A stretch of DNA of 14,141 nucleotides from Chloroflexota bacterium (GCA_027593235.1 JAQCIU010000055.1:1-14141); one strand, 5' to 3'; shown: positions 2,727 through 12,746, counted from the stretch's first letter. Numbers and translations are program-made. Notes: generated by a model not told the origin, from the letters alone.

Positions 2727-3101
2727 GTGATCCCGGAGCAGTTCGGGCGAGTCGTCATTCTGTTGGGGGTCGCGCTCGCATTTCCGGCGCTACCCCTGTC
2801 GGTTTCCTATCTCCTCTACCGCTTCAAGATCCGCCCCGAGAACCACGATCCGATCAAGGACGCCACCTACGAGTGCGGCGTGATCGCCGAGGGTGGCTCG
2901 TGGGGCCAGTTCAACGCCCGCTACTACCTGTTCGCCCTTGGCTTCGTCATCTTCGATGTCGAGGTCGTCTTCCTCTATCCGTGGGCGGTTGTCCACGCAG
3001 AGCAGGCGGTCGAGACCCTGGTCAAGGCCGCGATCTTCATCGGCATCCTCGCCTTCGGGCTTGCCTACGCCTGGCGCCGTGGCGCCCTGGAGTGGCGCTA
3101 G
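2727..3101 (+). CDS. nuoA: NADH-quinone oxidoreductase subunit A, 124 aa
   Basis: KDATYECG, YYLFALGFVIFDVEVVFLYPWA, YAWRRGALEW. GTG at 2727 preceded by AGGAGG (2714-2719). Confidence 0.96.
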   Translation: MIPEQFGRVVILLGVALAFPALPLSVSYLLYRFKIRPENHDPIKDATYECGVIAEGGSWGQFNARYYLFALGFVIFDVEVVFLYPWAVVHAEQAVETLVKAAIFIGILAFGLAYAWRRGALEWR

Positions 3102-3691
3102 TGCCGGCCGGGCCGACGCAGCTCGCCGGACAGCGCGTCGCCGAGGCGCTGGATCGCGCCCTGCCGGGCATCGTCACCGTCTCCAACGACGAGTGGGTCG
3201 AGGTCGCTCCCGCCCGCGTCGACGAAGCGCTGCACTGGTTGCACGACTCCGAGGAGTTCGATGCCGCCCAGCTCAGCAGCCTTTGCGCGGTCGACTACCA
3301 CGATCACTTCGCCGTCGTGTACCACCTGCAGTCGCTCGATCTGAATCACCAGATCGTCCTGAAGGCACGGGTGTCGGATCACGAGGAACCCGCGCTGCCG
3401 AGCAGCTACCCCATCTACAAAGGCGCGCTGCTCCAGGAGCGCGAGGTCTATGACCTGATGGGTATCCGGTTCGAGGGGCACCCCGATCTGCGCCGGATCT
3501 TCCTCTGGGATGGCTTTCCCGGTCACCCGCTCCGCAAGGACTTCATGGGCATCGGTCAGGGCCTCACCAGCGGCTTGCGCCGCTTCCCGTTCGAGGACAA
3601 GGCGAACCCGGATCGTCAGCTCAACCGCGACAACCTGATCGGCGACGAGCAAGACGTCCCGAGCGAATGGTCGGGGACGGCGCCAGCATGA
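3101..3691 (+). CDS. nuoC: NADH-quinone oxidoreductase subunit C, 196 aa
   Basis: LSSLCAVDY, VVYHL, EREVYDLMGIRFEGHPDLRRIFL, GHPLRKDF. GTG overlaps the nuoA TAG (TAGTG). Confidence 0.94.
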   Translation: MPAGPTQLAGQRVAEALDRALPGIVTVSNDEWVEVAPARVDEALHWLHDSEEFDAAQLSSLCAVDYHDHFAVVYHLQSLDLNHQIVLKARVSDHEEPALPSSYPIYKGALLQEREVYDLMGIRFEGHPDLRRIFLWDGFPGHPLRKDFMGIGQGLTSGLRRFPFEDKANPDRQLNRDNLIGDEQDVPSEWSGTAPA

Positions 3692-4791
3692 CCACCTCCG
3701 CCGAGCCGTACGTCCTCAACATCGGGCCGCAGCACCCGTCCACGCACGGCGTGTTCCGGATCCGCGTCGTCATGGACGGCGAGCGCATCCAGGACCTGGA
3801 CATGATCGTCGGGTACCTCCATCGCTCGATGGAGAAGCTCGCCGAGGAGCGCACCTACACCCAGAACATCCCGTTCACCGATCGCGCGGACTACCTCGCT
3901 GCGATGTCGAGCAACCTCGGACTCTGCCTCGCGGCGGAGCGCCTCGCGGACGTCGAGGTGCCAGAGCGCGCCTCTTACCTCCGCGTGATCTTCGCGGAGC
4001 TGCAGCGCATCGCCAGCCACGCGATGGCGAACGGCACGCTGGTCAGTGACGCCGGCGCCTGGCAGACGCCGCTGCTCTACATGTTCCGCGAGCGCGAGAA
4101 AATCCTCGACCTCTTCGAGATGACCTGCGGCGCTCGCCTCACGACCAACTACATGCGGATCGGCGGCGTCGCCTTCGAGCCGCCACCCGAATTCTGGCCC
4201 GCGCTCGAGGAACTGGTCGATGAGCTGCCGGATCGTATTAGCGAGTACGAGGAGCTGCTGACGCAGAACGAGATCTTCGTCGCGCGCACGCGTAACGTCG
4301 GCATCATCTCGGCGGAAGACGCGATCAACGGTTCGCTGGTCGGCCCCGCGCTGCGCGGCTCCGGCGTTCCGTGGGACCTGCGCAAGGCGGAGCCGTACTG
4401 CGTCTACGATCGCATGGAGTTCGACGTGCCGATCGGCCGCACCGGTGACGTGTACGACCGCTTCATGTGCCGGCTCGCGGAGACCCGCGAGTCCACGAAG
4501 ATCATTCGCCAGGCGATCGAGGGCATCCCGGACGGCCCGCACAAGACCGACATCCCACTCGCGCTGCGCCCACCACCCGGCGAGGTCTATGGCCGCGTCG
4601 AGGGCCCGCGAGGCGAGGTCGGCTTCTACCTGGTCTCGGACGGCGGTCCGGCTCCGTACCGCTTCCACCTCCGCGCGCCGTCGCTGATCAACCTCTCGCT
4701 GCTGCGCGAACTGGCGCGTGGCGCCTCGCTGTCGGACGCCGTGGTCACCCTCGGCTCGATCGACATCGTCGTTGGTGAGATCGACCGATGA
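3688..4791 (+). CDS. nuoD: NADH-quinone oxidoreductase subunit D, about 367 aa
   Basis: NIGPQHPSTHGVFR, GYLHRSMEK, DRADY, ELQRIASH, EGPRGE, SIDIVVGEIDR; no NiFe CxxC. Start chosen at the ATGA overlap (3667 is an alternative). Confidence 0.96.
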   Translation: MTTSAEPYVLNIGPQHPSTHGVFRIRVVMDGERIQDLDMIVGYLHRSMEKLAEERTYTQNIPFTDRADYLAAMSSNLGLCLAAERLADVEVPERASYLRVIFAELQRIASHAMANGTLVSDAGAWQTPLLYMFREREKILDLFEMTCGARLTTNYMRIGGVAFEPPPEFWPALEELVDELPDRISEYEELLTQNEIFVARTRNVGIISAEDAINGSLVGPALRGSGVPWDLRKAEPYCVYDRMEFDVPIGRTGDVYDRFMCRLAETRESTKIIRQAIEGIPDGPHKTDIPLALRPPPGEVYGRVEGPRGEVGFYLVSDGGPAPYRFHLRAPSLINLSLLRELARGASLSDAVVTLGSIDIVVGEIDR

Positions 4792-6221
4792 GCGACCAGC
4801 CGGTGCCACGTCGCCCCGCCACGCCGATGGCCCAGCAGATCCTCGATCGCGGGTCGCTGCTCGACGACGCGAAGCGGCTGCCCAGCGGTGTGAAGGCCGC
4901 TGGGGCGGTGTTCGCGCTCGGCTTCCTCGCCGTGAACGTCGCGATCGCCTACATCGTGATCGATGGCCGCCTCGATGGTCACTGGTACGACTTCCGCGAC
5001 CTCGGCAATGCGATCGCGCAGCTGCGCACTGAACTCGATGACACCGGCACCGGACCGTGGCTCTCGTACTGGGTCACCGGCCTCATCGGCGGGGTGGCGA
5101 TTCTCAGCTTCCTCGGCGGATTCCTGCTGATCGGGTCCTGGATCGAGCGGCGCCTGCTGGCCCGCTTCCAGATCCGCATGGGTCCAAACCGGGTCGGCCC
5201 CTTCGGGCTGCTCCAGCCGCTGGCCGACGCGCTCAAGCTGATGCAGAAGGAGGTGCTGATCCCGATCGGCGCTGACCGCCTGCTCTTCTTCCTGCCGCCG
5301 ATCCTGGTCTTCATCCCGGCGATGCTCGCCTGGGGTCCGGTGCCGTGGGCGCCGAACATGGCCTACCTCGATATCAACGTCGGGCTGCTCTACGTCATCT
5401 CGATCACCTCGTTGTCCGTGCTCGCGATCTGGATGGCGGGCTGGTCCTCGAACAACCACTACGCGCTGCTCGGCGCGATGCGCACGGTCGCGATGATGGT
5501 CTCGTACGAGATCCCGATCAGCCTCTCGCTGCTGGTGGTGGTACTACTCACCGGTTCGTTGAACCTCAACGAGATCGTCGCCTGGCAGGGCAGCCACAAC
5601 GTGTGGATGGCGTTCCTGCTGCCGTTCTCGATGTTCACTTTCTTCTTCTCCTCGACGGCGGAGATCAACCGCACGCCGAACGACATCGCGGAGGCGGAGT
5701 CCGAAATCGTCGCCGGTTTCCACACTGAGTACTCCGGCATGAAGGCCGGGCTCTTCCTGGCGGTCGAGCTGGGCAACGCACTGCTCGTCGGTGCGCTGTT
5801 CGCCACCTTCTTCCTCGGTGGCTACACGATGTTCGGGCTCGAAGAGTGGGTCCCGCCGTACCTGATCCTCGCGGTCAAGGCGACGACGGGGTACTTCTTC
5901 TTCATCTGGCTCCGCGGCACGCTGCCACGGTTCCGCATCGACCAGCTCATGACCTTCGCCTGGAAGTACCTGATCCCGCTGTCGATCGCCAACGTCCTGA
6001 TCGTCGCCGTCGAAGCCACGATCGCGGCGCGCTGGGAAGCCGAGGGCATCGTCATCTACGGCAGCTTCGCCCTGGTCAACCTGGCGCTCACCGTCTACGC
6101 CGTTCGTGCCTGGGCGCGCGTGATTGGCTACTCCGCGGAGCTTGAACACCCCGAGGGACCGCGCACCGCCGATCGGATTGGTGGGCTCAAGGCCGCACGG
6201 CAGATCCGGACGGGCGCGTAG
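4788..6221 (+). CDS. nuoH: NADH-quinone oxidoreductase subunit H with N- and C-terminal extensions, 477 aa
   Basis: ERR...RMGPNRVGPFGLLQPLADALKLMQKE, GWSSNNHYALLGAMR, SYEIP, EAESEIVAGFHTEYSG, RGTLPRFRIDQL. ATGA overlap with nuoD. Confidence 0.96.
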   Translation: MSDQPVPRRPATPMAQQILDRGSLLDDAKRLPSGVKAAGAVFALGFLAVNVAIAYIVIDGRLDGHWYDFRDLGNAIAQLRTELDDTGTGPWLSYWVTGLIGGVAILSFLGGFLLIGSWIERRLLARFQIRMGPNRVGPFGLLQPLADALKLMQKEVLIPIGADRLLFFLPPILVFIPAMLAWGPVPWAPNMAYLDINVGLLYVISITSLSVLAIWMAGWSSNNHYALLGAMRTVAMMVSYEIPISLSLLVVVLLTGSLNLNEIVAWQGSHNVWMAFLLPFSMFTFFFSSTAEINRTPNDIAEAESEIVAGFHTEYSGMKAGLFLAVELGNALLVGALFATFFLGGYTMFGLEEWVPPYLILAVKATTGYFFFIWLRGTLPRFRIDQLMTFAWKYLIPLSIANVLIVAVEATIAARWEAEGIVIYGSFALVNLALTVYAVRAWARVIGYSAELEHPEGPRTADRIGGLKAARQIRTGA

Positions 6222-6796
6222 TGGATTCGACCGGGATCGTCATTGCCTTTTACGTGCTGTCCGCGATCACCGTGGCATCGGCGCTATCGGTCTTCGTGAT
6301 GCGCAACCTGGTCCACGCGATCGTCTTCCTGGTGATGGCGTTCATCGGCATGGCCGGGCTGTTCGTGACGCTCTCTGCCGACTTCATCGCCGTCGCACAG
6401 ATCCTGATCTACGCCGGCGCGATCTCCGTCCTGCTCGTCTTCGCGGTGATGCTCACGCCGCTCGCCTCGCGGAACAACGGCAACTCGCTCTACGTGGGGC
6501 CGGGCGCACTCCTCGGCGCGGCGATCGCCGCGATCGTGGTGTTCACCGCCGTCGACGTGCAGTGGAACGAGCTGACCGGCGCCGCTCTCGAGGCCCGCGC
6601 GTTCCCTGACACGATCGCGACGATCGGCGACCTGCTGCTCGGCCGCCACGTCCTCGCCTTCGAGGTCGCCTCGGTGCTGTTGCTCTTCGCGCTGCTCGGC
6701 GCGATCGTGCTGGTCACCGACCGTGGCGCCGCCGAGACCTCCGAGGACGCCGAAGACCCGGCGGCCGCCGGCGTCACGACGGAGGAGGCGCGATGA
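6221..6796 (+). CDS. nuoJ: NADH-quinone oxidoreductase subunit J, 191 aa
   Basis: RNLVHA, ADFIAVAQILIYAGAISVLLVFAVML, FEVASVLLL. GTG overlaps the nuoH TAG. Confidence 0.95.
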   Translation: MDSTGIVIAFYVLSAITVASALSVFVMRNLVHAIVFLVMAFIGMAGLFVTLSADFIAVAQILIYAGAISVLLVFAVMLTPLASRNNGNSLYVGPGALLGAAIAAIVVFTAVDVQWNELTGAALEARAFPDTIATIGDLLLGRHVLAFEVASVLLLFALLGAIVLVTDRGAAETSEDAEDPAAAGVTTEEAR

Positions 6797-7119
6797 CCGT
6801 CACCCTCGCGCACTACCTCGTGGTTTCAGGCCTGATCTTCGGCATCGGTGTCGCGATCGCGCTCTCAAAGCGCAACGTCGTCGCGGTGCTGATGGGCGTC
6901 GAGTTGATGCTGAACGCCTCGAACCTGGCGTTCCTCGCCTTCTCGCGCTTCAGCGGCGCCTTCCAGGAGGGAACCGAACCCCTCGCCGGACACACCTTCG
7001 TCGTCTTTGTACTGACCGTCGCCGCCGCGGAAGCCGCGGTCGCGCTTGCGATGGCCGTGCTCATCTATCGCCATCGTGAAACCGTCGATCTCGATCGAAT
7101 CAGCGTGCTGCGATGGTGA
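6793..7119 (+). CDS. nuoK: NADH-quinone oxidoreductase subunit K, 108 aa
   Basis: LMGVELMLNA and VAAAEAAVALA carry both conserved Glu residues; ATGA overlap. Confidence 0.96.
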   Translation: MTVTLAHYLVVSGLIFGIGVAIALSKRNVVAVLMGVELMLNASNLAFLAFSRFSGAFQEGTEPLAGHTFVVFVLTVAAAEAAVALAMAVLIYRHRETVDLDRISVLRW

Positions 7120-7132
7120 TCGGGGCAACGCG

Positions 7133-7321
7133 ATGTGGGTGAAGTTCATGGATGTACCGGACGGCTACGCCGCCTCGATCTGGCGCGAGCTGTTCAACCA
7201 GGAAGCCGTCTCCGTGCGGGTTGTCCCGCCGCTGGAGATCGGATCGATGCGTGACGCGCGTGCGCTCTGGGTGCCTGACGGCAAGACCCACGTCGCCCGC
7301 GAAGTATTGAACAAGGTCTAG
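7133..7321 (+). CDS. Small soluble protein, DUF2007/GlnB-like pattern, 62 aa
   Basis: MWVKFMDVPDGYAASIWRELFNQEAVSVRVVPP...ALWVPDGKTHVAREVLNKV. Fills the nuoK-nuoL gap (13 and 4 nt spacers). Family assignment is by pattern only. Confidence 0.78.
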   Translation: MWVKFMDVPDGYAASIWRELFNQEAVSVRVVPPLEIGSMRDARALWVPDGKTHVAREVLNKV

Positions 7322-7325
7322 CCAG

Positions 7326-9263
7326 ATGATCCTGCCGGACATCCCTGAAGCAGCCGTCTGGGCGATCTATTTCGCCCCGCTGGTGTCGTTCCTCGTGATC
7401 GCCGCCGCGCTGCTGCTCAAGCTGCCGCAGTTCGAGGGCAAGCACGCCTCGGGCGTGACGATCGGCGCCATCGGCCTCTCCTGGCTGCTCGCGCTCTGGG
7501 CGCTCGACACCTCGATCGGTGCGGACGGCAAGTCGGTGGGCTTCGCGTCGCACCCCTGGGTCAGCCTGTTCGAGCTGGAAATCGAGTTCGGGGTGCAGCT
7601 CGACTCGCTGAGCGCCCTGATGATGTTCGTCGTCACCTCGGTGTCGCTGGTCGTGCAGCTCTACTCGACCGGCTACATGCACGGCGATCTCGGATACCGC
7701 CGCTACTTCATGCTGATGTCGCTGTTCACCATGGCGATGCTCGGCCTCGTGATGGCCTCCAGCCTGCTGCAGCTCTTCATTCACTGGGAGCTGGTCGGGC
7801 TCACCTCGTACCTGCTCGTCGGCTTCTGGTTCGATCGCCCCGCCGCCGCCGCGGCGGCGAAGAAGGCGTTCATCGTTACCCGCTTCGGCGACTTCTTCTT
7901 CCTGATCGCGGTCGTGCTGATCTGGGTGAAGACCGGCGGCGTCTTTGACATCGCGGAGATCAACCACCTCGCCGAAGAGCACGAGCTGACCAGTTCGGTG
8001 CTTACCGGCTTCGTCCTTGGCATCTTCGCCGGGGCCGTCGGCAAGTCCGCGCAGTTCCCGCTGCACTTCTGGCTGCCGGACGCGATGGAAGGTCCGACGC
8101 CGGTCTCCTCGCTGCTGCACTCGGCGACGATGGTCGCGGCCGGCGTCTACCTGCTCAGCCGCTTCTTCCCCGCGGTGGAGGCGGCTCCGGGTGGCGTTGC
8201 GACGACGATCGCGTACATCGGCGGGTTCACCGCGATCTTTGCGGCCTCAATGGGAATCGCGGCGAACGACATCAAGCGCGTGCTGGCGTACTCGACGATC
8301 TCGCAGCTCGGCTACATGGTGATGGCGATTGGCCTCGGTGGGTTCGTGGCGGCGATCTTCCATCTCTTCACGCACGCCTTCTTCAAGTCGCTGCTCTTCC
8401 AGGGCTCCGGCTCGGTGAACCACGCAACCGGCACCTTCGACATGCGGCAGATGGGTGGCCTGCGCACCAAGATGCCGGTGACGTTCTGGACGTTCCTGAT
8501 CGGATCGCTCTCGCTCTCCGGCGTGTTCCCGCTGGCCGGCTTCTGGAGCAAGGACGAAATCCTGCTGGACGCCTGGCACGCCGACAAACTCCTCTGGGTC
8601 GTCGGCACGACGGTCGCCTTCATGACCGCCTTTTACATGTTCCGCGCGATCTTCATGACCTTTGGCGGCGAATACCGAGGTGGCGCGGAACCCGAGCCGG
8701 GCCATGGCCACGCCGGACCACCCCACGAGTCACCGCGATCGATGACGGTGCCGCTGATCATTCTGGCGATCCCCTCGATCTTCTTCGGTCTGTTCGCGCT
8801 CAACGGCTTCGGTCACTTCATCGAAGGCACGCTGGTCGGCGAGGTGCATCACGTCGAGTCGTCGTCCGTCGTGGTCGCCGCGTCGCTCCTTGCCGCCCTC
8901 GGCGGTATCGGCGCCGCCGCGGCCGTCTACTACGCGCGGAAGCCCTCCCACGAGCAGCTTGGCCAGATGGCCGGCCCGCTCTACACCCTCGCCGTGAACA
9001 AGTACTACGTCGACGAGATCGCCGAGGACGGCATCATCCGAGGCGCCCTCGATCGAGGGATCGGCCGCGCCGCCGCCGCCTTCGATAAGTACGTCGTCGA
9101 TGGTGCGGTGAACGGCGTCGCCCTCGCGGCGCGACAGGTCGGCGACATGGCGCGCCGCCTCGAGACCGGGCAGTTGCAGGCCTACACCTCGATGTCGATG
9201 TTCGGGGTGGTCGCGGCGATCGTGGTGCTGTTCGTCCTGCGCGGGAATGTGTTGGAGCGCTAG
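7326..9263 (+). CDS. nuoL: NADH-quinone oxidoreductase subunit L, 645 aa
   Basis: WELVGLTSYLLVGFW, GKSAQFPLHFWLPDAMEGPTPVS, DIKRVLAYSTISQLG, HAFFK, GFWSKDEIL, C-terminal transverse-helix region. Confidence 0.97.
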   Translation: MILPDIPEAAVWAIYFAPLVSFLVIAAALLLKLPQFEGKHASGVTIGAIGLSWLLALWALDTSIGADGKSVGFASHPWVSLFELEIEFGVQLDSLSALMMFVVTSVSLVVQLYSTGYMHGDLGYRRYFMLMSLFTMAMLGLVMASSLLQLFIHWELVGLTSYLLVGFWFDRPAAAAAAKKAFIVTRFGDFFFLIAVVLIWVKTGGVFDIAEINHLAEEHELTSSVLTGFVLGIFAGAVGKSAQFPLHFWLPDAMEGPTPVSSLLHSATMVAAGVYLLSRFFPAVEAAPGGVATTIAYIGGFTAIFAASMGIAANDIKRVLAYSTISQLGYMVMAIGLGGFVAAIFHLFTHAFFKSLLFQGSGSVNHATGTFDMRQMGGLRTKMPVTFWTFLIGSLSLSGVFPLAGFWSKDEILLDAWHADKLLWVVGTTVAFMTAFYMFRAIFMTFGGEYRGGAEPEPGHGHAGPPHESPRSMTVPLIILAIPSIFFGLFALNGFGHFIEGTLVGEVHHVESSSVVVAASLLAALGGIGAAAAVYYARKPSHEQLGQMAGPLYTLAVNKYYVDEIAEDGIIRGALDRGIGRAAAAFDKYVVDGAVNGVALAARQVGDMARRLETGQLQAYTSMSMFGVVAAIVVLFVLRGNVLER

Positions 9264-10736
9264 ATGCTGACGCTCTTCTTGCTCCTCCCGGTGGTCGGCG
9301 CCCTGCTCGCGTTGTTCCTGCCGCGTGAACGTGAACAGGACGCGCGCTGGATCGCGCTGATCTTCTCCACGCTCGCCTTCGCCGTCTCGATCGTCGTCTT
9401 CATCTGGTTCGACCCGAGCGTCGACGGATACCAGATGGTCGATCAGTTCACCTGGATCAACCCCGGCCGCGGTGGCTTCGTGGTGCAGTACGTCGTCGGC
9501 GTGGACGGGTTGTCCGCCCCGCTGATCCTGCTGCTGGGCCTGCTCTCGGTCGTTGCCGTCCTCGTCTCGTTCAGCATCGAGGTGCGGGTCAAGGAGTACT
9601 TCGCGTACCTGCTGCTCCTCGAGACCGCCGTTGCCGGCGTCTTCCTCTCGCTCGACCTGATCCAGTTCTTCCTCTTCTGGGAGCTGGAACTGCTGCCGAT
9701 GTACATGCTGATCAGCCTCTGGGGCACCGGCCGCAATCGCTACAGCGCGATGAAGTTCCTCATCTACACGCTGGCCGGATCGGCGTTCATGCTCGTCGGC
9801 TTCCTTGTGTTGGGCCTCGAGGGCGGCACCTTCGAGATCGCGAAGCTGGCGCAGACGCCGCCACAGGACGCGCTGGTGCCGCTGTCGATGGTCTTCTGGG
9901 CAATCATGCTAGCGTTCCTGGTGAAGCTCCCGATCTTCCCGTTCCACACCTGGCTGCCCGACGCGCACACCGACGCGCCGACAGCCGTCTCCGTGATGCT
10001 GGCCGGCGTGCTGCTGAAGATGGGTGGCTACGGCATCCTGCGCATCGTCTTGCCGATCCTCCCGGATCAGGCGTACGACTTCCGCGTGGTGCTCGCGGCA
10101 CTGGCTGGGTTCTCTGTCGTCTACGGCGCCGTGATCACCCTCCAACAACGCGACCTCAAGCGGCTCGTCGCCTACTCGTCCGTCTCGCACATGGGCTATG
10201 TGCTCCTTGGGATCGCCGCCCTCGGGTCGGTCGGGTTGTCCGGCGCCGCGCTCCAGATGTTCACGCACGGCACGATCACGGGGCTCCTGTTCGTGATGGT
10301 CGGGCTTGTCTACGAGCGGACCCACACGCGGCAGATCTCCGAGATGACCGGCCTGATGCACCGCATGCCGCTGATTGGGACGGTGATGTTGATCGCCGGT
10401 CTCGCCTCGCTCGGCCTGCCCGGCATGTCTGGCTTCGTTGCCGAGCTGACCACGTTCCTCGGCGCGTTCGAGCCACACCCGGCCGCGACCATCGCCAGCA
10501 TCTTCGGCGTCGTGCTGGCAGCCGGCTACATCCTTTGGACGGTGCAGCGCGTCTTCCACGGCCCGGCCGACGAGAAGTGGGCACACCTCACCGATGCCAG
10601 CCACTGGTGGGAGTACGTCGCGATGGGGTCACTCGTGATCACCATCCTCGCCGTCGGCATCTTCCCGCAGCTCCTGACCGATTCGATTGAAAGCGGCATC
10701 GCGCCGATCGCGCGCATCTTCGAGGCAAGCGCATGA
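9264..10736 (+). CDS. nuoM: NADH-quinone oxidoreductase subunit M, 490 aa
   Basis: FWELELLPMY, VKLPIFPFHTWLPDAHTDAPT, LAGVLLKMG, DLKRLVAYSSVSHMG, GFVAE. Confidence 0.97.
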   Translation: MLTLFLLLPVVGALLALFLPREREQDARWIALIFSTLAFAVSIVVFIWFDPSVDGYQMVDQFTWINPGRGGFVVQYVVGVDGLSAPLILLLGLLSVVAVLVSFSIEVRVKEYFAYLLLLETAVAGVFLSLDLIQFFLFWELELLPMYMLISLWGTGRNRYSAMKFLIYTLAGSAFMLVGFLVLGLEGGTFEIAKLAQTPPQDALVPLSMVFWAIMLAFLVKLPIFPFHTWLPDAHTDAPTAVSVMLAGVLLKMGGYGILRIVLPILPDQAYDFRVVLAALAGFSVVYGAVITLQQRDLKRLVAYSSVSHMGYVLLGIAALGSVGLSGAALQMFTHGTITGLLFVMVGLVYERTHTRQISEMTGLMHRMPLIGTVMLIAGLASLGLPGMSGFVAELTTFLGAFEPHPAATIASIFGVVLAAGYILWTVQRVFHGPADEKWAHLTDASHWWEYVAMGSLVITILAVGIFPQLLTDSIESGIAPIARIFEASA

Positions 10737-12220
10737 GCGGTCTGGACCAGGTGCATCACATCGGGCCCTCGATCGCCCTCTTCGTCGGCGCCGGGCTCGT
10801 CCTGACCGTCGACATGCTCTGGCCGCGTGGCTCCCGAGGGCGCGCACCGCTCGTCCAGGTCACGCTCCTCGTGCTGCTCGTGGCCTTCGGCTGGGCGCTC
10901 TGGCACGCCATGACCGGAACCAACGGAACCGCCTTCGACGGCGCCGTCGTGATGGATCGCTTCGCCCTCTTCTTCATCTTCCTGCTGGTCGCGACCACCG
11001 CCGCCGTCACCGTCGCCTCCACCGAGTGGGCAGGCGAGCTGGACCTCCGAGGTGAGTACTACGCGCTGATGCTCGTCGCCGCCGGTGCGATGTCGCTGCT
11101 GGCGCAAGGCAACGACCTGATCCTGATCTTCATCGCGCTCGAGACCACCTCGATCGTCCAGTACGTGCTCGTCGGCGTGACGCGCGAGGATCGCAGCGCT
11201 GAGGCCGGCATCAAGTACCTGATCAGCGGCGCGATCGCCGCCGGGCTGATGATCTACGGCTTCGCGTTCCTGTTCGGGACCACCGGTGCTACCTCGTTGG
11301 ATGGCATCGCCGCGTTCGTGCAGACCGGCAACGAGGAAGCGCGCTTGCCGCTGATGCTCGGATTCGTGCTCGTCGCCGCCGGGTTCGGCTTCAAGATGGC
11401 GATCGTGCCGTTCCACGGCTGGGCGCCGGACGTCTACCAGGGCGGACCGACGCCGGTCATCAGCCTCCTCTCCGTCGCCTCGAAGGCCGGCGGCTTCGCG
11501 ATCGCACTGCGGCTCTTCTACAACGGCCTCGGCGGCGCGGACACGTTCATCAGCGAAGACTGGGCAATGATGTTCGGGGTCTTCGCAGTCGGATCGATGC
11601 TGTTCGGCAACCTCGGCGCGCTGGTCCAGACGGATGCACGGCGGCTGCTTGGCTATTCCTCGATCGCCCAGGCAGGCAACGTGGCGATCGGGCTTGCCGC
11701 GGTCGCGGCCGGGAGCACCTTGGGGCCCTCGGGCGTCCTGTTCTTCCTCGGTACCTACGTCGCCACGAACCTCGGTGCGTTCTTTGCCGTGATGGCGATC
11801 TCACAGCGCATCGGCTCCTACGCCATCGCGGACTACGCGGGCCTGATCAAGCGGTCGCCGCTGCTGGCCGCCGTGCTGATGCTCTGCCTGCTCTCACTCA
11901 CCGGCATCCCACCGACCGCCGGATTCATCGCGAAGCTCTACATCTTCAACGGCGCGATCCAGGCCGATGCGCAGTGGCTCGTCGCCGTCGTGGCAATCGC
12001 CGTCGTCAACACCGCGATCTCCGCCTTCTACTACCTGCGCTGGGTCCGCACGATGGTGCTCGATGATCCCGAGGAGGAGACGACCTTCACCGCCAGTGGC
12101 CCGATGCAGGCGATGCTCGCCCTGGCTGCGGTCAGCGTGCTCTTCTTCGGCCTCATCCCCGCGCCGCTTATCTCCGCCGCACAGCGCGCCGCCGAGACCC
12201 TGAGCGTCCCGCTCTCCTAG
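10733..12220 (+). CDS. nuoN: NADH-quinone oxidoreductase subunit N, 495 aa
   Basis: GEYYAL, ALETTS, EAGIKY, FKMAIVPFHGWAPDVYQG, YSSIAQAG, GIPPTAGFIAK, FYYLR. Confidence 0.97.
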   Translation: MSGLDQVHHIGPSIALFVGAGLVLTVDMLWPRGSRGRAPLVQVTLLVLLVAFGWALWHAMTGTNGTAFDGAVVMDRFALFFIFLLVATTAAVTVASTEWAGELDLRGEYYALMLVAAGAMSLLAQGNDLILIFIALETTSIVQYVLVGVTREDRSAEAGIKYLISGAIAAGLMIYGFAFLFGTTGATSLDGIAAFVQTGNEEARLPLMLGFVLVAAGFGFKMAIVPFHGWAPDVYQGGPTPVISLLSVASKAGGFAIALRLFYNGLGGADTFISEDWAMMFGVFAVGSMLFGNLGALVQTDARRLLGYSSIAQAGNVAIGLAAVAAGSTLGPSGVLFFLGTYVATNLGAFFAVMAISQRIGSYAIADYAGLIKRSPLLAAVLMLCLLSLTGIPPTAGFIAKLYIFNGAIQADAQWLVAVVAIAVVNTAISAFYYLRWVRTMVLDDPEEETTFTASGPMQAMLALAAVSVLFFGLIPAPLISAAQRAAETLSVPLS

Positions 12221-12263: not shown

Positions 12264-12746
12264 ATGCCGAACTTCGTCTCAATCGAGGTAGATGACGCGC
12301 TCGACGTTTCCGTCGATCTGCTCTGGCAGGTCGCGGTGGACGCCCTCGTCGGCGACGACATCGACGATGCGGAGCTGACGATCCGCATCGCGGGCGATGA
12401 CCTGCTCCAGCAGCTCAACCGCGACCATCGAGGGATCGACGAACCGACGGACGTGCTCTCGTTCCCGGCGACGGACGACGACGACTTCCCCGACCTCGAG
12501 GAGGACGACGAGGAGAGCGGCTACCTCGGTGACATCGCGATCTCGCTGGCGGCGGCCGGGCGCAATGCCGCGGTCACCGGGACGCCGCTCGAGCGGGAGT
12601 TGCGGCACCTCGTGACCCACGGGGTGCTCCATCTGCTCGGCTACGACCACGAGTCGGACGACGACACGGCGGCAATGCGGGCACGCGAGGTGGCGCTGCT
12701 CGGTGACTGGGTACACGCGATCTGGGACGCCCCGCCCACCCACTGA
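12264..12746 (+). CDS. ybeY: rRNA maturation endoribonuclease YbeY, 160 aa
   Basis: LNRDHRGIDEPTDVLSFP, LGDIAIS, HGVLHLLGYDH metal-binding motif. Confidence 0.96.
   Translation: MPNFVSIEVDDALDVSVDLLWQVAVDALVGDDIDDAELTIRIAGDDLLQQLNRDHRGIDEPTDVLSFPATDDDDFPDLEEDDEESGYLGDIAISLAAAGRNAAVTGTPLERELRHLVTHGVLHLLGYDHESDDDTAAMRAREVALLGDWVHAIWDAPPTH

Follow-up and report, generated by a model that had tools for sequence, protein, structure and literature searches.

The nuo operon in the window, which is the whole of a 14,141-nucleotide (14-kb) contig of a Dehalococcoidia MAG (source genome G000, contig C1), is most probably a split operon for a canonical complex I (redox-driven and proton-pumping) and not a new kind of machine, a reading to which we assign a probability of roughly 85% on sequence evidence. 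The missing NuoB (cluster N2) and NuoI (clusters N6a/N6b) would be supplied in trans from two other contigs of the same genome, C16 and C49. An earlier note, based on the window alone, had singled out the complex as the best candidate for an undescribed system; this did not hold up, as orthologous nuoB and nuoI genes are found in trans and the enzyme appears to be an ordinary complex I.

Between positions 2727 and 12220 of the window, Pfam searches name nine genes on the + strand which, with an unassigned ORF (orfX) between nuoK and nuoL, give the order nuoA-C-D-H-J-K-orfX-L-M-N. The genes overlap or abut, with gene-to-gene gaps from nuoA to nuoN of -1, -25, -4, -1, -4, +13, +4, 0 and -4 nt, so that the order and close packing described earlier are borne out by both the Pfam calls and the gap lengths. 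The individual genes are as follows:

2727..3101, + strand: nuoA, 124 aa; PF00507 E 1.7e-32; GTG start after a GGAGG-like site; its stop and the nuoC start overlap by 1 nt.
3101..3691, + strand: nuoC, 196 aa; PF00329 E 5.5e-40; TIGR01961 113.8 bits, below the cut-off of 122.45.
3667..4791, + strand: nuoD, 374 aa; PF00346 E 1.4e-94; NF004739 450 bits, above the cut-off of 360.
4788..6221, + strand: nuoH, 477 aa, without cysteine; PF00146 over residues 104-407 only; NF004741 321 bits, above the cut-off of 305.
6221..6796, + strand: nuoJ, 191 aa; PF00499 E 9.7e-33; its start and the nuoH stop overlap by 1 nt.
6793..7119, + strand: nuoK, 108 aa; PF00420 E 1.3e-25; E37 and E80 invariant (n=28 sequences).
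7133..7321, + strand: orfX, 62 aa, predicted soluble; conserved, with 7133 as the likely start.
7326..9263, + strand: nuoL, 645 aa; PF00361 and PF00662; E155, K240, K354 and K409 invariant (n=28 sequences).
9264..10736, + strand: nuoM, 490 aa; PF00361 E 2e-76.
10733..12220, + strand: nuoN, 495 aa; PF00361 E 1.3e-67.

The operon thus encodes 9 of the 11 core subunits, namely the entire membrane arm (A, H, J, K, L, M and N, all seven far above the Pfam cut-offs) together with C and D from the quinone module. Because stop and start codons overlap at both the A/C and the H/J junction, neither has space for a further gene. Whole-genome HMM searches gave no match on the window contig for Oxidored_q6 (NuoB), NuoI or Complex1_51K (NuoF), and a six-frame scan of the window found neither CxxCxxCxxxC(P) nor CCxxE, its sole match being a GCPP that occurs by chance in 54 out-of-frame residues. 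These results confirm that the window holds neither room for nor a remnant of nuoB or nuoI, and nuoE, nuoF and nuoG are likewise absent from the operon. Promoter-like and terminator-like sites occur in the window at chance level (1 vs. 1.1 expected and 6 vs. 4.8 expected, respectively).

This gene order does not result from misassembly. The same order without B and I is kept in all of the 80 related species-level loci (67-93% NuoD identity), several of them from closed chromosomes, which corresponds to the clade-wide survey of A-C and H-J adjacency that had been proposed for this operon. Within 10 kb on either side of these loci (less at contig ends), there is no match for B, I, E, F or G. In addition, both junctions are bridged without indels by contigs of two independent studies (X3, records 9 and 13; X4, records 17 and 22). 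The window is indeed a short MAG contig, from which nuoB and nuoI might have been dropped by misassembly or mis-binning, but in view of the 80 independent loci and the bridging contigs we give this explanation practically no weight.

The source genome contains one intact orphan nuoB, on contig C16, where it follows a cysteine desulfurase gene and is itself followed, in the same direction, by genes for Ni-SOD and S26 peptidase. Its product has all four cluster N2 cysteines (GLACCAIEM, GGCA..GGP and PGCPP) and scores above the cut-offs of TIGR01957 (231.8 bits vs. 142.7) and NF005012. One intact orphan nuoI is located on contig C49 directly before nuoG; the protein has two CxxCxxCxxxCP motifs and reaches 103.6 bits with TIGR01971, just below the cut-off of 113.05. 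A nuoE-nuoF pair is found on contig C52. The suggestion of an Fe-S 'wire' with its genes in trans is therefore borne out by the orphan nuoB, the orphan nuoI with nuoG, and the nuoE-nuoF pair.

A complete second operon of 11 genes, nuoABCDHIJKLMN, lies on contig C36; it is an independent paralogue of the window operon (30-49% identical) with its own B and I. The genome totals are two NuoD (C1 and C36), two NuoB (in-operon on C36, orphan on C16) and two NuoI-grade genes (in-operon on C36, orphan on C49), and profile searches with Oxidored_q6 and NuoI retrieved no further B or I paralogues in the source genome. Since the MAG is 89.7% complete, additional gene copies could be unassembled; the same two types of B and two types of I recur in each of five relatives, of which four are closed chromosomes and one is a 2-Mb contig. 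According to the earlier note, the finding of just one nuoB and one nuoI elsewhere, both ordinary and in no special context, would reduce the case to a split operon. This is essentially what the genome contains, except that the contexts are mildly special, with the desulfurase next to nuoB and nuoG next to nuoI.

The history of the two genes can be followed within the class. An unsplit, orfX-bearing operon with B and I inside is present in six genomes of other Dehalococcoidia families (G109, G284, G034, G025, G132 and G181; G020 and G011 are split). G109 and G284 have a single NuoD each and the operon order A-B-C-D-H-I-J-K-orfX-L-M-N, and G034 also has a single NuoD, its contig starting inside nuoB, hence nuoA is not seen. 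In these three genomes, most subunits score better against the window type than against their C36 counterparts; K (G109 and G284) and N (G034) instead favour the C36 type slightly. The in-operon B of G109 and G284 gives 218-235 bits against orphan B and 154-166 bits against the C36 B, while the 34-residue piece of B in G034 matches orphan B only; likewise, the in-operon I of all three genomes gives 90-118 bits against orphan I and 67-82 bits against the C36 I. In a NuoB tree of 18 rows, the C36-type sequences form one clade and the orphan sequences group with those from within orfX-bearing operons in another (support 100/100), and a NuoI tree of 14 rows has the same two-clade split (support 100/99). 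As these in-operon orthologues occur in sister families and the trees agree, B and I were relocated and not lost. Judged by orthology and gene history, the orphan B and I would be the cognate subunits of the window operon.

G004, G005 and G011 represent an intermediate state in which the two orphans are neighbours, nuoI coming immediately after nuoB. About 7 kb upstream of this pair, G004 and G005 have a cysteine desulfurase gene, and 2-4 kb downstream they have nuoG, and in G000-G003, nuoB is still accompanied by the desulfurase and nuoI by an adjacent nuoG. In the ancestral state, B and I would have stood at their usual A-B-C and H-I-J places in an orfX-bearing operon; in the window lineage, the gene orders indicate that the two left the operon together, as a nuoB-nuoI pair, and were separated later. 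In G004 both nuoI genes are orphan, the paralogous operon of this genome having lost nuoI independently.

These data also bear on the idea that the Fe-S genes are kept apart for their own regulation, for exchange between two chassis or for use with different electron donors. The two paralogous chassis do occur together in G000-G005, both nuoI genes are orphan in G004, and the co-directional run of desulfurase, nuoB, Ni-SOD and S26 peptidase genes would permit separate control. However, each genome has a single orphan B and a single orphan I, which are vertical orthologues of the genes found within the operon in sister families, and the C36 operon of G000 has its own copies. Furthermore, the B types are well apart in sequence (165-180 bits across types vs. 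199-507 bits within a type), as expected of fixed partners, and no ETF, Hdr, F420 or ferredoxin genes are found among the neighbours of the B and I genes. We thus regard this modular arrangement as improbable, and the specific proposal of interchangeable B/I modules for different donors is not supported by a genome with only two Oxidored_q6 and two NuoD genes. Given the paralogous set, assembly of subunits across the window and C36 complexes may nevertheless occur, which the sequence alone would allow. It is also conceivable, though doubtful, that the export of nuoB and nuoI (along with nuoG) was adaptive: the desulfurase-nuoB-Ni-SOD run would tie separate control to Fe-S supply and oxidative stress, the exported subunits would dock on either chassis, and orfX would be an extra subunit or assembly factor marking the window-type chassis.

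In the alignment of NuoD with Nqo4 of T. thermophilus (E 3e-104), the two proteins share GPQHPSTHGV without a difference, TDRADYL is paired with TPRMDYL and VSDAGA with LLDLGA. The His of QHPSTHG, the Tyr of DRADY and the Asp of SDAGA, which we take to be the functional quinone-site residues, are kept, and there are no NiFe-binding cysteines, so that the alignment and the sequence agree with what had been said of NuoD. The key Glu and Lys residues noted before are likewise seen in NuoK, NuoL, NuoM and NuoN, those of NuoK and NuoL being the invariant ones listed above. The earlier note had also raised a redox-uncoupled complex. In such a case, the products of the window would assemble without Fe-S subunits and serve as a cation/proton antiporter-like or structural module. 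The operon itself does encode no cysteine-cluster protein, but NuoC and NuoD are retained with every quinone-site residue conserved, which would be purposeless without cluster N2, and the cognate B and I are intact, conserved across the clade and located in the operon in sister families. Nothing in the data requires such a complex, and we consider it very improbable.

In the split canonical complex I that we favour, electrons would take the normal route from N6a/b via N2 to the quinone site of NuoD/NuoH. Input would probably be from NADH through NuoE-NuoF (C52) and NuoG, as suggested by the nuoI-nuoG adjacency, which is a weaker step of the mechanism. The NuoE, NuoF and NuoG candidates all score below the NCBIfam equivalog cut-offs and NuoF has unusual N- and C-terminal extensions, making the NADH input module the least secure part.

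NuoH is also extended, with an additional predicted TM helix at either terminus (approximately residues 31-62 and 418-439, by hydropathy). The C-terminal extension can be aligned in the split-operon loci with a complete nuoH, except for L125 and L127. We considered the two extensions as possible remnants of nuoI or nuoB and found no similarity (best blastp E 1.1-6).

Two related enzyme families were considered and rejected. A group 4 [NiFe] hydrogenase or an Ehr/Mbx-like complex is at odds with the matches of NuoD, as the 50 PDB chains listed at E ≤ 1e-60 are all complex I/NDH-1 49-kDa, NuoD or NdhH subunits, and with the presence of only two Oxidored_q6 genes in the genome, both NuoB-grade; in NuoD, GPQHPSTHG presumably stands where hydrogenases carry cysteines. 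The scores for an Fpo complex are well below the NCBIfam exception cut-offs (343/600 bits for FpoD, 253/475 for FpoH, 67/220 for FpoC and 66/180 for FpoI).

In comparison to the canonical Nuo/Nqo enzymes of T. thermophilus and E. coli, no core subunit of the membrane arm or the Q module is missing, and NuoB and NuoI have their full cluster ligands. The differences are that the genes do not form one operon but occupy at least four loci, that a 62-aa ORF is inserted between nuoK and nuoL, that NuoH has the two extra predicted TM helices, and that the N-module candidates are divergent. In Dehalococcoides, the gene order is nuoABCDHIJKLMN and nuoEFG is not in the operon. The complex encoded here is orthologous to this 11-subunit Chloroflexi/Dehalococcoidia complex I, with B and I outside the operon in the window's subclade. 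Small genomes without orfX have a single NuoD, which is nearer to the window type (55-60%, as against 50% for the C36 type). In cyanobacterial and plastid NDH-1, the ndh genes occur in several separate clusters, which sets a precedent for a functional complex I-type enzyme with dispersed genes, those for the NuoB and NuoI homologues lying apart from most membrane-subunit genes. The two cases differ in lineage, split pattern and electron input, and the split described here is young enough for its course to be followed inside a single class. In the available text of PMC3144371, Chloroflexi are among the holders of the 11-subunit complex I. Our literature search returned no paper on Dehalococcoidia with both nuoB and nuoI; the available text of PMC12361115, PMC4453560 and PMC3144371 describes neither the split nor orfX, and their supplements could list such 'partial' clusters.

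The main value of these findings is a correction: this Dehalococcoidia clade, widespread in water and soil, will be labelled 'incomplete' or 'Fe-S-less' by pipelines that score complex I by operon or by module, whereas its complex I would be complete but scattered. In addition, the clade offers a clean, datable case of operon fragmentation in one class, from an intact operon through excision of the B-I pair to separation of B and I.

New biology could come from one item, orfX, which is strongly conserved, belongs to no known family and is testable. It lies between nuoK and nuoL wherever its surroundings were inspected, including all 74 related loci that extend this far; 231 of the 301 class genomes searched match its profile, and its codon differences are mostly at third positions. 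There are 746 homologues, and all 120 of those listed are named 'hypothetical protein' at the source. Pfam gave no match for orfX even at E ≤ 10, DUF2007 (PF09413) included, for which an Atlas cluster came up only as a 0.86 lead; NCBIfam also gave no match, an hmmsearch of the PDB nothing below E 0.5, and a Foldseek search of the PDB nothing at E ≤ 0.001. We regard orfX as a class-specific candidate for an accessory subunit or assembly factor of complex I. Its AF2 model (pLDDT 95) has a beta-alpha-beta-beta-alpha fold, which VIA-align matches to the first domain of PrgK/EscJ (Z 8.8-9.0) and to 2hfv (Z 6.9), a range that denotes a common arrangement.

The window, which is the whole of contig C1 (14,141 bases) of a 78-contig, 3.39-Mb metagenome-assembled genome (MAG; completeness 89.66 %, contamination 0.59 %), carries nuoA, nuoC, nuoD, nuoH, nuoJ, nuoK, nuoL, nuoM and nuoN as a co-directional series on the + strand, as assigned with Pfam. 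Upstream, the opposite strand carries a thiolase-like gene, and nuoN is followed by ybeY and then dnaX. Two smaller features adjoin the nuo genes:

7133-7321, + strand: orfX, 62 amino acids, in the nuoK-nuoL interval, no known family (start set by comparison with relatives)
12264-12746, + strand: ybeY (endoribonuclease), starting 43 nt past nuoN, with dnaX next

No terminator-like site was seen in the nuoN-ybeY interval in a terminator scan. The intergenic gaps from nuoA through orfX to nuoN are, in order, -1, -25, -4, -1, -4, +13, +4, 0 and -4 nt. No gene fits between nuoA and nuoC or between nuoH and nuoJ, because in both pairs the stop of the first gene overlaps the start of the second. In HMM searches of the whole genome, none of the matches to NuoB, NuoI or NuoF fell on this contig, and a six-frame motif scan of the window found neither CxxCxxCxxxC nor CCxxE. 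NuoD aligns with Thermus Nqo4 at E 3e-104, and its quinone-site motifs are intact. Thus, the earlier note's description of a complex I-like operon devoid of Fe-S subunits is borne out in every particular.

The window NuoD was searched against one genome per species, giving 458 relatives, of which the best 80 loci were kept. These are all MAGs deposited as Dehalococcoidia or Chloroflexota (66-93 % identity), several of them closed chromosomes. By tblastn, the full order A-C-D-H-J-K-orfX-L-M-N is present in 59 of the 80; in the remaining 21 the order is the same, but a contig end truncates it or one gene appears as two HSPs. No match to NuoB, NuoI, NuoG, NuoE or NuoF was found in any of the 80 within flanks of up to 10 kb per side, shorter at contig ends. 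In addition, both junctions are spanned without indels by contigs from two other studies: A-C in X3 record 9 and X4 record 17, and H-J in X3 record 13 and X4 record 22. The shared order and these bridging contigs exclude an artefact of assembly or binning as the cause of the missing nuoB and nuoI.

The Fe-S subunits had been supposed to be encoded in trans, and the genome-wide searches located them. The genome has exactly two Oxidored_q6 genes and exactly two NuoD genes by HMM search. One of each belongs to a complete 11-gene operon on contig C36 (nuoA-B-C-D-H-I-J-K-L-M-N). With only 30-49 % identity between its products and the window's, this operon is an old paralogue. Contig C16 has the other nuoB, as an orphan, and the genome's best NuoI match is an orphan on contig C49, followed after ~100 nt by a NuoG-type gene (852 aa). 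A nuoE-nuoF pair is found on contig C52. The loci of NuoB and NuoF are as follows:

contig C16, stretch L004 7835-11147, co-directional run: cysteine desulfurase, orphan nuoB, Ni-superoxide dismutase (sodN), S26 peptidase
contig C52, stretch L020 7709-9982: NuoF candidate, long, with ~135 extra residues ahead of its NuoF core and a C-terminal tail rich in cysteines

Just upstream of the nuoB run are an IscA-like gene and an HTH regulator, and the desulfurase-nuoB adjacency is seen again in the related genomes G001-G003. Both orphans are intact: NuoB retains the CC..E, GGC and GCPP cysteines, and NuoI has two CxxCxxCxxxCP motifs. The NuoE, NuoF and NuoG candidates all score below the NCBIfam equivalog cut-offs. 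A further E/F-like pair, on contig C18, lies ahead of a gene for a true formate dehydrogenase alpha subunit (725 bits vs. a cut-off of 666) and was set aside.

Copy number, unsplit relatives, further genomes and trees agree in identifying the orphans as the operon's own B and I. Two NuoB types and two NuoI types, the number seen in the window genome, are present in each of G001-G005, which were reached through named loci (four closed chromosomes and one 2-Mb contig). In G109, G284 and G034, small genomes from other families in which NuoD is single-copy, there is one contiguous operon, A-B-C-D-H-I-J-K-orfX-L-M-N, the G034 contig starting inside nuoB. The scores of most of their subunits favour the window type over the C36 type; only K of G109 and of G284 and N of G034 score slightly higher to the C36 type. 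The in-operon B of G109 and G284 gives 218-235 bits to the orphan B vs. 154-166 to the C36 B, while for the 34-residue piece of B in the G034 stretch examined the orphan B was the only match. For the in-operon I, the scores are 90-118 bits to the orphan I vs. 67-82 to the C36 I. In three further families (G025, G132 and G181), a B16-type gene (that of the C16 orphan) lies ~4.3 kb and an I49-type gene (that of the C49 orphan) ~1 kb upstream of orfX; in G020 and G011 both are elsewhere, away from orfX. Maximum-likelihood trees of NuoB (18 rows) and NuoI (14 rows), in which some long branches were flagged, separate a C36-type clade from a clade of all orphans and in-operon copies of orfX operons, with support of 100/100 and 100/99, respectively. 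On these sequence comparisons, the orphan nuoB and nuoI are vertical orthologues of the window operon's own B and I.

The orphan nuoI directly follows the orphan nuoB in G004, G005 and G011, and the pair is flanked in G004 and G005 by a cysteine desulfurase ~7 kb upstream and by nuoG 2-4 kb downstream. In the window's family (G000-G003), nuoB neighbours the desulfurase at one locus and nuoI neighbours nuoG at another. The simplest history would be that B and I left the operon as a pair and later parted. The C36-type operon of G004 (L138, G004:C1:1207000-1225000; L139) reads A-B-C-D-H-J-K-L-M-N and also lacks nuoI, its I36-type gene being an orphan ~500 kb away, so nuoI relocation occurred more than once. 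In G005 the nuoB-nuoI pair appears twice with identical scores, on chromosome C1 (L111) and on the small contig C10 (L112), probably as an assembly duplicate, and the small contig supplies the third hit in that genome.

The best reading is that this enzyme is an ordinary complex I. The trans-encoded NuoB and NuoI would assemble with the window products, and the electron path would run through NuoI (N6a/b) and then NuoB (N2) to the quinone site formed by NuoD and NuoH, while H, A/J/K, N, M and L would carry out the coupled proton pumping. The key charged residues of the pumping subunits are kept. The input from NADH through the NuoE, NuoF and NuoG candidates is a less secure part of the scheme; nuoG travels with nuoI. 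The idea in the earlier note of interchangeable B/I modules for different donors, plugged into a pump chassis, is unlikely, favoured by nothing beyond the coexistence of two chassis, and neither additional B or I copies nor alternative-donor neighbour genes were found. A redox-uncoupled complex, also raised earlier, is contradicted by the conservation of both the quinone site and the cognate B and I.

NuoH is unusually long (477 aa) and has no cysteines. Its additional length lies at both ends:

4788-5100 and 5990-6221, + strand: NuoH N- and C-extension regions, with one extra predicted TM helix per end (~residues 31-62 and 418-439)

Likeness to NuoB or NuoI was sought in both extensions and none was found. 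The C-terminal extension is alignable in the split-operon loci with complete nuoH and not in the unsplit operons L125 and L127.

In cyanobacteria the ndh genes are scattered, a precedent for split operons. Since full-text literature searches returned no description of the Dehalococcoidia split or of orfX, and given this precedent, we rate the gene order as new and the enzyme itself as known. In the portions available, general surveys class such cases as 'Nuo-partial' clusters (PMC12361115), and one survey remarks on oddities in Chloroflexi counts (PMC4453560). Small Dehalococcoidia without orfX have a single NuoD of the window type and fit the 11-subunit complex I reported for Chloroflexi, as far as the accessible part of that report goes (PMC3144371).

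orfX is highly conserved and is a candidate for either a lineage-specific subunit of complex I or an assembly factor. All 74 related loci that extend far enough have it between nuoK and nuoL, as do the unsplit operons, and its profile matches 231 of the 301 Dehalococcoidia genomes searched, a count that takes in the unpublished genome G249. The 120 listed of its 746 database homologues all bear the name 'hypothetical protein', and those organisms that are named belong to Dehalococcoidia or Chloroflexi/Chloroflexota. An alignment of 30 sequences has ten invariant residues, and codon differences fall mainly at the third position (864 vs. 367 at the first and 149 at the second). The AlphaFold model is confident (pLDDT 95) and predicts a beta-alpha-beta-beta-alpha fold, with generic structural likenesses only, plus a weak DUF2007 lead.
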